Shown piece by piece: positions 42,226-45,813 of a DNA stretch of 45,813 nt (the stretch's first letter is position 1; the number at the start of each line of letters is the position of its first letter). Source of the stretch: Spirochaetales bacterium (GTDB lineage Bacteria; Spirochaetota; Spirochaetia; Treponematales; UBA12059); NCBI GenBank assembly GCA_016928955.1, contig JAFGJV010000012.1:1-45813 (forward strand), in the 5' to 3' direction. A program made the position numbers and the translations under genes. Under the pieces are notes generated by a model that did not search any database, was not told the origin of the DNA, and saw only the letters and a list, made by a program, of their open reading frames with translations.

Positions 42226-43221
42226 TCAATCGAATACGTCGTCTATTTTCCGGATCATGAAATCCATGATGCCATAGACGCTGTGTACGCTTCCGTCCTC
42301 AGACATGAAACAGCCGAAGCTCCGGAGGAAATATTGGGTCTTGGAGGAAGGGGCGGTTTCTTCACTGTGATAGGCCAGCATGGAGTCGCTGATGACGAAT
42401 ACAATCGTCTCGCCGGAGCCCGTGGTGACGAGGGCTGAATTTGTCATGGTGTTGAGTCTGGGATTCCTGGTGCTCTGGGCCAGGAATCCGATGAATCGTT
42501 TCAGTACGCTGTCCTCTCCAATGGCTTTGAAGCCTGACAGCGTGTCCACCCAAAGACGGTTTGTAAAAGCTAAGTCGTAGTTGAAGCTTGTGCCGCTCGG
42601 CTTGGGTCCCTCGATGGGAAATGCTACCAGGTCATCCACGTCCTCGATCGGAAAAAAGGACAGGTAGTCTAGCGTCCCTGTTTCCATGAGCCACATGCCA
42701 GGGTAGAGGAAAACGTCATCCACCCCCGGCAGCGTGCCGGCGCCGCGACCCCCGGCCAAGGCCAATACGTGAACGTTGAAATCGCCCACCGTGAATACCA
42801 CGATCTTCACATCCTTGCCGGCGTTGAAAGGCAGTTCCTCATTGGCCATAGTGCCGATATCCTGACTCACCGTGACCTTGTCGCCAGCCTCAACATGATC
42901 AGGCACGCGAACATTCGCGTAAAGGACATAAAACACGCTTTCCAGTTCACTGCCGCCAAGGTAGTATGTCGAGGATGATTTCACGACGATACCTCCGCCA
43001 AAAACGCCGTGGAACTGGTCGCCAGAAAATACGGCTTCGACCGTCCCGGAGCGTAGCGGCTTCAAGGTATCGAAGGATATCCCGAAGGATATACCGTCGA
43101 CGCCTTCCTGGTTTTCGACCATGAAGTCGGCTATCCTGCCGAGGCCGTCTGCGGCGCTCGATTGGGCCGCGCAATACGCGGCGGCGAGGATGGCCATGCA
43201 GGCAACAAAGGCTCGTTTTAT
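42226..43221 (-). CDS. Secreted hypothetical protein with degenerate M23/LytM-like segment (start uncertain)
   Basis: Signal-like (I)KRAFVACMAILAAAYCAA; YVLYANVR...VEAGDKVTVSQDIG resembles the M23 core without its His ligand. Candidate starts: ATG 43263, ATA 43221, ATG 43197. Confidence 0.6.
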   Translation of the reverse strand: MKRAFVACMAILAAAYCAAQSSAADGLGRIADFMVENQEGVDGISFGISFDTLKPLRSGTVEAVFSGDQFHGVFGGGIVVKSSSTYYLGGSELESVFYVLYANVRVPDHVEAGDKVTVSQDIGTMANEELPFNAGKDVKIVVFTVGDFNVHVLALAGGRGAGTLPGVDDVFLYPGMWLMETGTLDYLSFFPIEDVDDLVAFPIEGPKPSGTSFNYDLAFTNRLWVDTLSGFKAIGEDSVLKRFIGFLAQSTRNPRLNTMTNSALVTTGSGETIVFVISDSMLAYHSEETAPSSKTQYFLRSFGCFMSEDGSVHSVYGIMDFMIRKIDDVFD

Positions 43222-43287
43222 GGGTGTCTCCGTGAGGGGCGAATCCCTTGAGTATAATCGCATCTAGTGCTTTTCGGAATCCCTATT

Positions 43288-43394
43288 GGGAACCTCTAAA
43301 ACCCCCATGGGTATTAGAGGTTCCCTGCGTTTTCGGCGGAAAACACAGGGTTTCTAAGGTAACCCTCTAAAAACTGAAGTTTTTAGAGGCTCCC
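43288..43394. repeat. Composite palindrome cluster (REP doublet/BIME- or MITE-like)
   Basis: Hairpin 43288-43325 (12-bp perfect arms GGGAACCTCTAA/TTAGAGGTTCCC), linker hairpin 43323-43350, hairpin 43364-43389 (11-bp perfect CCTCTAAAAAC/GTTTTTAGAGG); the outer ends of the whole unit are also inverted repeats. Confidence 0.8.
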
Positions 43395-43606
43395 TTTTGT
43401 AAATTTCGAGCAATATGGTAAAACTAATTGCGTATGCTTATATTACTAGGCGATGTTTCTTATCATAGTGTGTATTGTTGCTTGTACTGATCTGGAAAGA
43501 AGCATGGGAAATTATGAGAGCTATGTGAGTGTGCTTTGAATAGAGTCGTCGATGCAGCAAAGGGTTATACTGTAATTATTAGCAGAAGCCGGGGGCGCAT
43601 TAAGAA

Positions 43607-44140
43607 ATGCCAATCATAATCGCTATTCTAGCATTCGCGGCGCAGTTTTTAGTTAAAGAATAATATGGTTCCTTTATTTCGCTATTCGGAATGGTATTTC
43701 TGTGTGCTGTAATTCATTATGCGAAACCTGATGTTAGATTTAATAAACTTAGTTTTATATTGGCGCCCTTTTTTGTTTTGGCGGTCGACGCGTCAAATTA
43801 CTTGATTTCTGGCAGCTATTTTCCAACGATAGGTCTTTTTGTGGCAGCTTTCATAGAAGAAGTGGTGTATAGATTCTATCTAGATGATGAGTTGTCAAAA
43901 TATCATAGCAGCGGGTGCTCGGGAATGATCTCTCTAGGAGTTTTCTTACTCATTCATGTACCCAAATATTTGGACAGACTTCAGTCTTATCTTATTTTAG
44001 GTTTTGCGACAACCTTTTTTCTTTATTACAAACGTAAGACAAGAGATTTGATGCTGGTCAGCATACTCCATTTTGGTTTCAATTCATTTCTCATGTTATT
44101 TCTATTGCCAATTGTTGAATTCATTCTTTATGGATCATAA
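43607..44140 (+). pseudogene. CPBP family (CAAX/Abi) intramembrane protease, in-frame TAA at codon 19 (or truncated product from ATG 43691)
   Basis: FIEEVVYR, FLLIH and LHFGFN motifs; upstream in-frame MPIIIAILAFAAQFLVKE*YGSFISLFGM with TAA at 43661-43663. Confidence 0.7.
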
Positions 44141-44235: not shown

Positions 44236-44266
44236 TTGACAAATTTCCCCAGGTGGCGAATATTTT
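44236..44266 (+). promoter_or_regulatory. Possible promoter of the peptide gene (TTGACA ... TATTTT)
   Basis: Perfect -35 at 44236-44241; -10-like TATTTT at 19-nt spacing (suboptimal); AAGGAG SD at 44275-44280. Confidence 0.4.
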
Positions 44267-44286
44267 TAATGTCCAAGGAGAAGCGT

Positions 44287-44658
44287 ATGAAAAAGCTGTT
44301 GCTGTTGTTGGTTCTGGCGCTCTGCGCCGGGCTGGGGCTGTGGGCCCAGGAGGCCGCCGTGGATCCCTTTGCTGCCATCGAAGCGGAGGAGCTCTGCGCC
44401 GAAGAGATGAAAATGGTTCAGGGCGGATTGCCGCGTAGGGCTGGAGATGTCACCATGTCTATTGATGGTGTGTCAGGTGGGTACCTGAATCAGTGGCAGG
44501 CGAATTTGCATAGCGGGTATAACACTGGAGATGATTATTACCCGGCATCTACAGCAAAAGAAAGACGAAAAGAAATAAAAAAAGTTATTGGTATTACTAG
44601 GTATGTCCTGAATTTTTGGGACAACTTGCTTGGCGGAATCTCTGAAGAACTCGAATAA
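44287..44658 (+). CDS. Secreted precursor: Sec signal, acidic double-glycine-type leader and 76-aa core (bacteriocin/peptide-signal-like), 123 aa
   Basis: MKKLLLLLVLALCAGLGLWA|QEAAVDPFAAIEAEELCAEEMKMVQGG|LPRR...; strong SD; followed by a terminator; CPBP genes on both sides. Confidence 0.8.
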   Translation: MKKLLLLLVLALCAGLGLWAQEAAVDPFAAIEAEELCAEEMKMVQGGLPRRAGDVTMSIDGVSGGYLNQWQANLHSGYNTGDDYYPASTAKERRKEIKKVIGITRYVLNFWDNLLGGISEELE

Positions 44659-44666
44659 TTAGCCTG

Positions 44667-44697
44667 CTACTGGCAAAGCCATTTGCTTTGCCAGTAG
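44667..44697 (+). terminator. Intrinsic terminator-like hairpin
   Basis: 13-bp perfect stem CTACTGGCAAAGC/GCTTTGCCAGTAG, 5-nt loop, followed by TCTTCAATTTT; begins 8 nt after the stop. Confidence 0.75.
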
Positions 44698-44841
44698 TCT
44701 TCAATTTTACTCACATCGACAGCGGTATGCTACAAAAATAAAAGCACTGTAGCTGTTGACAACTCGCATTTGCGGTTTTTCAACATCTTGTTGCTATAAG
44801 TGAGAGGGGGGCATGAGAAGTGCCCCCGTTGGTGGTGAAAA

Positions 44842-45573
44842 ATGGATGATTTCTTGAAAAAACTATTAGGGAATTCAGTAGGCCGGGCAGGAGTTATTTT
44901 ACTTATTAATACCATTCTACTTTTTTTGCTAGTCCTAGGTGCTAAGCTATCCAAAAAGAAAGCATTCTTTCGCGGTTTGTGCATCGTTTTATATAACATA
45001 GTGCTTTCTGAATTCATCTATACAGCAATAATAGCGTTTGTCAATTATAATTACCAAAAATGGCTGGTTGGGCAGTTTTTAGTCATGATCTTTCTTGGGC
45101 TTTTACAGTCAAGTGTGATTTATATGTCATATTGCTTATTTCAAAAGGCAATAGGTGTTAATGTTGGAAAGAATTTATTGAACTCAATGGTGGTGAAAAA
45201 AGGTGATTTATTTCCTATGGTAAAGAGTTTGATTTTTCCGTTGATTTATCTGGTGGTCTTTATCACTGCGAGAGGCCGGCATCGTATTGTATTAGAACCT
45301 CTACAAATCGTCAACTTGGTCGTCCTAACACCAATAATCGAAGAATTCATATTCAGGTTTTCGATACCGCAAATGCTCAAAAAAGAAAAACTTGCGTTGG
45401 GATACATTTCTATTTTGTCAATTGTCTTCGCGCTTCTCCATCCTGCGGACGCGAAGTTGTTTGCCCTATTTTTTTCAATGTATGTGTATTCTGTTTATAA
45501 TAAAATCGGCAAATTAAGCGCAACAATAATTATCCATAGTATTTCGAATTTTGTGTACGTTTATTGGATGTAG
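44842..45573 (+). CDS. CPBP family (CAAX/Abi) intramembrane glutamic protease
   Basis: PIIEEFIFR, FALLH and IHSISN motifs; multiple TM helices. Confidence 0.88.
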   Translation: MDDFLKKLLGNSVGRAGVILLINTILLFLLVLGAKLSKKKAFFRGLCIVLYNIVLSEFIYTAIIAFVNYNYQKWLVGQFLVMIFLGLLQSSVIYMSYCLFQKAIGVNVGKNLLNSMVVKKGDLFPMVKSLIFPLIYLVVFITARGRHRIVLEPLQIVNLVVLTPIIEEFIFRFSIPQMLKKEKLALGYISILSIVFALLHPADAKLFALFFSMYVYSVYNKIGKLSATIIIHSISNFVYVYWM

Positions 45574-45576
45574 ATT

Positions 45577-45813
45577 ATGACTACCAAAACAACAAAACTT
45601 AGCTTTGTAGAAACACGTTATATGCAGGTGAAAAAATGTAATTCACGCGTAAGCGCAAGGCTAATTGGAACTCTTGGGGCGGTCTGTCTCGCGCTCACGC
45701 TCGAAATAGCTCTACAGTGGATTTATGGTGAGATAGTCAATCGTAACGAGACCTGGTTGTACGAGCATTGGTCACCTTTTGTCTGGGATAACTACGATTT
45801 CCTCCGGGAACTC
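45577..45813 (+). CDS. Partial membrane protein (open to window end)
   Basis: ATG 3 nt after the CPBP stop; frame MTTKTTKLSF...LIGTLGAVCLALTLEIALQW...DFLREL stays open to 45813; not in the ORF track. Confidence 0.55.
   Translation, partial: MTTKTTKLSFVETRYMQVKKCNSRVSARLIGTLGAVCLALTLEIALQWIYGEIVNRNETWLYEHWSPFVWDNYDFLREL

Follow-up and report, generated by a model that had tools for sequence, protein, structure and literature searches.

In this study, the 123-codon ORF at positions 44287-44658 (+ strand) of the window (the whole stretch of DNA analysed, 45,813 nt) was found to be one unit of a modular system in which a constant leader is joined, at staggered junctions, to many unrelated cores, with tandem units and with downstream genes that match the cores. 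In relatives, genes for a stand-alone C39 peptidase, a lipoprotein and a PF13557 barrel are linked to these units. The gene is likely part of an undescribed toxin-and-immunity system, for which export by a Fap-type protease and pore is predicted. Hereafter, G000 is the genome analysed, other G numbers are genomes of relatives, L numbers are loci, C numbers are contigs of G000 (named as such to avoid confusion with the C39 peptidase), and X numbers are sequencing runs. The ORF lies within an AT-rich island, whose 1-kb windows have approximately 43-44% GC and which stands at the end of contig C23; G000 itself measures 2.87 Mb and has approximately 64% GC. Close homologues carry the label Spirochaetia.

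Codons 1-20 (44287..44346) encode a predicted Sec signal peptide with a basic n-region, a hydrophobic h-region and Ala at -1; the prediction is based on these sequence features and on conservation, Ala20 being invariant in 47/47 aligned proteins. An acidic pro-leader ending in Gly-Gly, the predicted C39 site, follows in codons 21-47 (44347..44427), and its Gly46 is likewise invariant in all 47. The "GG cleavage site" of the original prediction is a putative one, suggested by the motif and by conservation in the family; lantibiotic-leader models matched the pro-leader weakly, below the cut-offs (TIGR03893, E 0.1; PF16934, E 0.056). The core consists of an N-terminal segment of type N3 (44428..44541; GC3 17/36), which is common to cores with other C-termini, and a variable C-terminal segment with the stop codon (44542..44658), which is replaced in P0002, P0011 and P0010 and has diverged in P0003. 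A sigma70-like promoter match (TTGACA-17-AATATT) at 44236..44264 on the same strand came from a consensus scan only, which gave 11 promoter-like sites versus a shuffle mean of 6.3. The -10 part of this match and the RBS fall within a DNA module at 44251..44411 (+), comprising the upstream region, the signal peptide and most of the pro-leader, which is shared with the metagenome loci described below. Behind the gene, a terminator-like hairpin with a 14-pair stem (44666..44698, +) belongs to a small repeat family in G000 with 3 longer copies and further shorter ones. The 44660-44790 repeat was considered as an integron attC site and rejected, since other copies stand behind ordinary host genes.

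Two genes for CPBP/Rce1 (CAAX) proteases flank the ORF on the same strand, CPBP1 at 43607..44140 (PF02517, E 1.4e-11) and CPBP gene 2 at 44842..45573 (PF02517, E 7.3e-12), and the latter is followed by a membrane-protein gene (45577..45813, +), truncated by the contig end and without a Pfam match. CPBP1 contains an in-frame TAA at codon 19 (43661-43663), and runs X3 and X4 differ from the window at 43663. The island is bordered by a REP-like palindromic repeat of 115 nt with three hairpins (43283-43397; z -5.5), present in G000 in approximately 50 copies of at least 70 nt; X3 and X4 skip 180-192 nt just behind it. A 330-aa secreted-looking ORF (42229-43218, - strand), divergent from the island and intermediate in GC (GC3 0.67), gave only weak Pfam matches to M23 and FimA. 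Further AT-rich islands of G000 (C13:1-5400, C24:1-2300, C39:1-11500, C40:1-7000 and C1:49500-53000) hold no leader copies; resolvase/recombinase-like, restriction-like and large secreted ORFs were recognised in them by eye, contig C39 being seen as low-GC windows only.

The original prediction rested on hand counts of GC, and these were exact: 87/141 GC and GC3 37/47 for codons 1-47, and 99/228 and 30/76 for codons 48-123. The best single GC3 changepoint had a permutation p of 0.0003 (10,000 shuffles), and the +0.39 difference between the two codon blocks was reached in the same blocks by none of 1300 long host ORFs with GC3 of at least 0.72 (maximum 0.28). Host genes have a GC3 of 0.84-0.86 and the flanking CPBP genes 0.33-0.36. 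The contrast is not an amino-acid effect, because it persisted when Met and Trp codons were omitted (leader 33/43 vs core 27/73; Fisher p 4.4e-5) and at fourfold sites (20/24 vs 13/33). While the counts and the synonymous contrast were thus confirmed, the single sharp breakpoint placed at GG did not hold: the ten best changepoints spanned codons 25-79 within 0.73 log-likelihood, and GC3 dropped in two steps, from 31/39 (0.79) in codons 1-42 to 19/40 (0.47) in codons 43-85 and 10/37 (0.27) in codons 86-123, the last also being the count for the C-terminal core segment. Leader GC3 exceeded core GC3 at p<0.05 in 9 of 10 family genes tested, which are related and not independent. The contrast was absent in 3 of 12 precursors (G004, G020 and G021); that of G020 is AT-rich throughout (GC3 leader/core 0.32/0.22) and that of G021 GC-rich throughout (0.84/0.92), and we read the former as having arrived recently and the latter as fully ameliorated.

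A protein search with the window product gave 8 matches among 90 candidates. Four of the 8 aligned to the first 37-38% of the query only, with 87-91% identity, and then ran into unrelated cores, designated B and C; others kept the first half of the window core and switched near residue 85. Leaders over unrelated cores were 85-94% identical in amino acids and 89-96% in DNA, and one contig of 19,896 bp carried four leader genes with three core types (KBB32_05435, 05450, 05460 and 05470). Three metagenome loci matched the window from 44251 (or 44301) to 44411-44413 and then diverged into cores different from that of the window, with DNA identities of 96% over 161 nt (L014), 92% over 163 nt (L015) and 89% over 44301-44411 (L013). 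Tandem units were found in L014, with a leader containing a stop codon and a core of A type, a CPBP gene, and a leader with core C, and also in G005. The idea of a polymorphic cassette was therefore supported in relatives, in which such leaders precede unrelated cores, several per contig and each with its own downstream gene; the opposite outcome, homologues conserved across the junction, was not what was found, as the homologues change sequence there.

Against the window, the identity drop did not fall at the predicted GGC GGA codons. Identity to copies with other cores ended at 44411-44413 (codon 42-43), five codons (approximately 15 nt) short of the end of GGC GGA, and loose contig ends were present at 44411/44413 in runs X2, X3 and X7. 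Among genes with cores B, C and D the junction is at codons 51-55, and between the two paralogues of G005 it is exactly at GG (81% over 259 nt). Crossover points are thus scattered from approximately codon 42 to 55 rather than fixed at GG, and a second switch zone lies near codon 85, inside the core. The 44251..44411 module is likely a recombination anchor, judging from its DNA identity across loci. Fragments from the 5' end of the C39 gene follow inner units in G005 and L015, which suggests that the 5' end of the C39 gene is a second anchor. Modular exchange or conversion, taken alone, is regarded as highly probable. In G005, a 562-aa serine hydrolase of the beta-lactamase family (PF00144; L026:8167-9855) lies between two units and overlaps a 5' C39 fragment. 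In G009 (L066:1591-3230), a family leader stops three residues past GG, with CPBP and C39 genes beyond the neighbouring transposase, which we take to be IS30-like. At L077:1-1271, on a contig that its source calls 'archaeon' and that is possibly mis-binned, a precursor of the family has a beta-rich core; a lipoprotein-like gene and a transposase come next.

The leader had also been predicted to be multicopy, which applies to other genomes and to read contigs, whereas in this assembly it is single-copy: blastn, tblastn and six-frame searches with HMMs of the leader and of the pro-region found no second copy in G000. The assembly breaks within the island, where contig C23 ends, and the other AT-rich contig ends of G000 carry no part of it. 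The sole PF03412 match of G000, at the end of contig C59 (L016), is a stand-alone C39 peptidase cut by the contig end, which covers residues 23-142 of a full homologue with 207 residues and is short at the C-terminus; the gene directly after it is presumably leuS-like. Because a piece of this C39 precedes a leader in L015, contig C59 likely continues the C23 locus, its end being the likely other side of the island. The PF13557 barrel had no match in the G000 assembly; the export module of G000 is in the assembly gap or decayed, and may be degenerate.

Of the 22 runs listed, 5 were compared with the window as Logan contigs. Run X2 contained 1462 nt of the window without difference, in addition to variants of the leader that continue into different cores. 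One contig each of X1 and X3 leads from 44544 across 1089 letters back to 44251 and so contains another tandem unit, a strain mixture being possible; the joint in X1 has 18 letters on one side, matched at 85% likeness, and X1, of which 56% was covered, is possibly the source run and so not independent. Read depth over the leader was higher than over its neighbours in the runs examined, which we do not read as copy number. Leader pieces were present in the RNA run X7, in which contigs cannot show transcription. An identical copy of the CPBP1 protein and a precursor with core B were each found on a JGI contig of 1276 bp; if the two contigs are one, for which equal size is the sole link, core B occupies this slot in another strain.

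A PF02517 CPBP gene follows 8 of the 12 precursors with a visible next gene. The other four are followed by a membrane gene (L013), a gene for a 134-aa soluble protein (G020) and lipoprotein-like genes (G004 and L077, judged by eye). Related cores go with related CPBPs, the G005a and G036 cores being identical at 42/67 positions and their CPBPs at 90/239, and the partner gene varies with the core, in loci that are few and related. Different cores are carried by loci beside the same kinase gene, syntenic in G005, G036, G120 and G131; the gene labels pyruvate kinase, purL and purQ are presumptive. The cores of the window and of L014 have a common N-segment and different C-ends, and CPBP gene 2 matches the CPBP behind that related L014 core in the catalytic half only, with 43% identity over 82 aa; it is likely the cognate partner of the window core. 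CPBP1, without a precursor upstream, is identical at 61/163 positions to the CPBP behind a different core in G120 and is likely an orphan, a putative immunity gene. The product of 45577..45813 is 37% identical over 54 aa to that of L013:1469-1630 (pairwise E 3e-13), the gene directly after core B, and probably represents a second orphan partner gene. According to PMC4517551, CAAX proteases act in pneumococcal bacteriocin immunity, with their targets given as not known.

The gene order in G005, G120 and G020 is precursor, partner, C39, barrel and lipoprotein; the C39 and FapF-like export module had been overlooked in the original prediction, which listed only leader, core and downstream immunity/protease genes. 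Stand-alone C39 genes linked to substrates were found in G005, G120, G020, G004 and G009, and the linked C39s of relatives are proteins of approximately 200 aa. The G005 barrel matched PF13557 over the cut-off (E 4e-5); NCBIfam matches of the module were weak, including FapD (NF058616, E 3.2e-6, far below the cut-off), FilB and FilC. Among 41 family genomes, C39 was present in 13 and the barrel in 16, with all 13 C39 genomes having the barrel. In G020, the whole module, leader included, has approximately 30% GC (GC3 0.2-0.37) in a host of approximately 58% GC. As for class II features, a GG-type leader motif is present, library leader models matching below the cut-off only, and the combination of N-terminal leader and C39-ABC transporter was not found, a 20-aa Sec-type signal coming first and the PF03412 match of G000 being stand-alone. 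No N/Q-rich amyloid repeats of the FapB/FapC type were seen by eye in the 63 collected proteins, and no Fap family match was obtained among the precursors scanned. In genus g11, C39 and barrel are present in 5 of 6 genomes, and a fully GC-rich single unit, comprising a GG precursor with a YkuD-like core, a lipoprotein-like gene, C39 and barrel, occurs at L064:6310-8636 and L065:5298-7633.

With a leader profile, this anatomy was also recognised in further genera of the family, and among the 7453 candidates of a profile search, 54 proteins belonged to it. The leader motif was present in 54 of the 63 collected proteins, with GG (39), GD (8), GS (3), GA (2) or GE (2) as the last two residues; G021 and G010 are looser members, recognised by eye and position only. 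Cores of the 54 motif proteins formed 22 clusters (60% coverage) or 16 (any match), and comparison of the first and last 30 core residues gave 16 N-segment and 26 C-segment types in 28 combinations among 59/65 proteins. Core sizes were 43-137 aa, and up to approximately 200 aa with an enzyme fold. In a leader tree of 50 columns, mostly unresolved, the 13 window-type leaders formed one clade (100/100) carrying N1, N3 and N7 cores, and N1 and N3 cores also occurred on the other leader clade.

The family seems to be a narrow one. Among 400 genomes of the phylum sample there was no true match, the sole match outside G000 being a signal peptide only; a search of genome contigs gave 0/401 stretches, one of viral contigs 0/172, and a search of representatives gave 6 matches only. 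Among 9 non-self matches and 16 non-self places, those without a pro-region were rejected as plain signal peptides. Fused long forms of the family numbered 0 among 7999 candidates of 334-2000 aa, which is weak evidence. A literature search, chiefly of open-access main texts, gave no description of the family; the supplements of PMC3482391 and PMC11798529 could list spirochaete members.

The window core gave no Pfam or NCBIfam match and no Atlas match of 0.9 or more. Its net charge is -1, many other cores also not being strongly cationic, and its amphipathic helix is unremarkable (103/1000 shuffles as high). The G004 core has a YkuD fold (E 2.9e-5, over the cut-off), with a lipoprotein-like gene next to it, and the G021 core gave a YkuD match below the cut-off (E 2.5e-4). 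For the G020 core there is a weak Ntox35 lead (Atlas 0.92, only 4/10 matches agreeing; Pfam none). A PDB sequence search with the G004 and G020 cores gave 0 matches, as did a plasmid tblastn with the G020 core and P0050. The P0050 core ends in a Lys/His-rich stretch, presumably reminiscent of an Rhs-type C-terminal toxin, and had no Pfam, NCBIfam or plasmid match. Tox-LD-peptidase is among the polymorphic toxin domains listed in PMC3482391.

The nearest system is the nap island of Neisseria (NapABC, NapP, NapF and NapI; PMC11798529), in which acquired, AT-rich genes for GG peptides and a putative immunity gene are likewise flanked by a stand-alone C39 and a FapF homologue with GC nearer that of the host. 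By the accessible text of that paper, mature Naps differ in being 16-36 aa long, in functioning in autolysis, and in lacking CAAX partners and a constant leader over many cores; the term 'signal peptide' does not occur in its main text, in which a holin is proposed for the inner membrane. Pseudomonas Fap resembles the arrangement predicted for the spirochaete genes in its Sec-exported substrates, its periplasmic C39 FapD and its outer-membrane barrel FapF of the PF13557 family (PMC5557850). The Fap substrates described there, however, are amyloid subunits that lack canonical GG leaders, and the target of FapD is given as unclear, whereas every spirochaete substrate has a conserved GG-type leader, a variable core and a partner gene.

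As to the likeness to polymorphic toxins, the modular architecture agreed with the original prediction: a constant N-terminal trafficking part with variable C-termini was found, as were alternative cassettes and orphan partner genes within the locus (tandem units, two orphans in the window and the broken L014 leader), while "toxin" and "immunity" are putative labels. Sec-dependent toxins of the MafB type share a signal peptide, a lineage-specific constant N-terminus, a variable C-terminus, a downstream partner and orphan partners, and one spirochaete core has the LD-peptidase fold (PMC3482391). The constant part, however, is a GG pro-leader of 27 residues and not a globular domain, the partner is mostly a CPBP, and most spirochaete cores match no toxin listed in the available part of PMC3482391, in the first 300,000 characters of which 'double-glycine' and 'CAAX' have 0 occurrences. 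The pneumococcal blp (PMC4517551) and Treponema denticola Tep (PMC11879956) systems share GG leaders, tandem variable precursors and immunity-linked CAAX proteases. Their leaders begin directly at the N-terminus and depend on a C39-ABC transporter, whereas in the spirochaetes a Sec signal precedes the GG leader and the G000 PF03412 match is stand-alone.

The best reading is that these spirochaetes carry polymorphic arrays of GG precursors that combine a Sec signal with export genes of the Fap/Nap type. In the proposed mechanism, Sec would move the precursor to the periplasm, where signal peptidase would cut after Ala20 and a FapD-like C39 after GG; the 76-aa core would then exit through a FapF-like barrel and act on related cells, the producer being protected by the paired CPBP, or by another partner in the case of enzymatic cores. 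New pairs of core and partner from AT-rich donors would enter by recombination in the leader, and probably also in the C39 5' end, leaving orphan partner genes behind. We slightly favour this chain as a whole, i.e., a modular array unit, a secreted precursor predicted to be an antibacterial toxin, CAAX-protease immunity and AT-rich donors. A wider generalisation is put forward tentatively, as a view somewhat short of even likelihood: spirochaetes may use Sec, periplasmic C39 and FapF barrel as a general launcher of polymorphic toxins, with a signal and GG leader of 47-52 residues as the fixed address, to which AT-rich donors would supply anything from 45-residue peptides to cell-wall enzymes as cores, each with its own immunity gene, through crossovers at varying positions around GG and within the core.

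Several other explanations have to be weighed. The cores could serve as pheromones that signal within a strain, or as autolysis peptides directed at kin of the producer, with the CPBP maturing or clearing them rather than giving immunity; we consider this unlikely. A CPBP protease matures the staphylococcal agr peptide, and many cores are not strongly cationic. The Neisseria Naps, with a C39 and a FapF homologue, cause autolysis and had no antimicrobial activity (PMC11798529), and the GG proteins of T. denticola are secreted, with no killing detected with supernatant (PMC11879956). The cores, however, measure 43-137 aa, more with an enzyme fold; no sensor kinase or regulator was seen by eye among the ORFs listed around the loci; and the partner class changes with the core (CPBP, soluble protein or lipoprotein-like), with orphan partners retained. 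It is very improbable that the cores are structural or surface subunits, such as Fap/Fil-like fibres or variable surface peptides, leaving by the same route and not acting as weapons. The only characterised route with a stand-alone periplasmic C39 and FapF does export amyloid subunits (PMC5557850), and the best NCBIfam matches of the module are to putative pilus proteins (FilB/FilC), but the cores have neither repeats nor a common sequence, and a one-to-one variable partner gene is unexpected for fibre subunits.

The origin of the cores can also be explained by old in-house paralogues, whose leaders are kept alike and GC-rich by gene conversion while the cores drift in place, with no foreign swap. 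The grouping of leaders by host lineage, with N1 and N3 cores on both leader clades, agrees with this, as does the fact that an AT-rich donor was found neither in the 400 phylum genomes nor in viral contigs. Yet cores and CPBPs have a GC3 of 0.22-0.50 in hosts near 0.85, different cores occupy the syntenic loci by the kinase gene in four genomes, and the G020 module is AT-rich with its leader, as a recent arrival would be; we therefore hold the paralogue explanation to be improbable. The chance that the GC shift is merely an amino-acid or random effect in an ordinary single gene is close to nil: signal peptides are rich in Ala, Leu and Gly and the leader is single-copy in G000, but the contrast is seen at fourfold sites, occurs in 9 of 12 homologous genes and is not matched by any of the host ORFs compared, and the homologues change sequence at the junction.

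A codon-level GC step in a gene of 123 codons can mark a genuine module boundary. If the preferred reading of exported polymorphic GG precursors is true, it would add a delivery route to polymorphic toxin biology and give periplasmic C39 peptidases of the FapD type a first family of substrates whose GG leaders are clear. The natural pairs of core and CPBP would serve the study of CAAX-protease bacteriocin immunity, and the spirochaetes of sludge and sediment would possess a system for competition whose core types, at least 16 of them, are unclassified.
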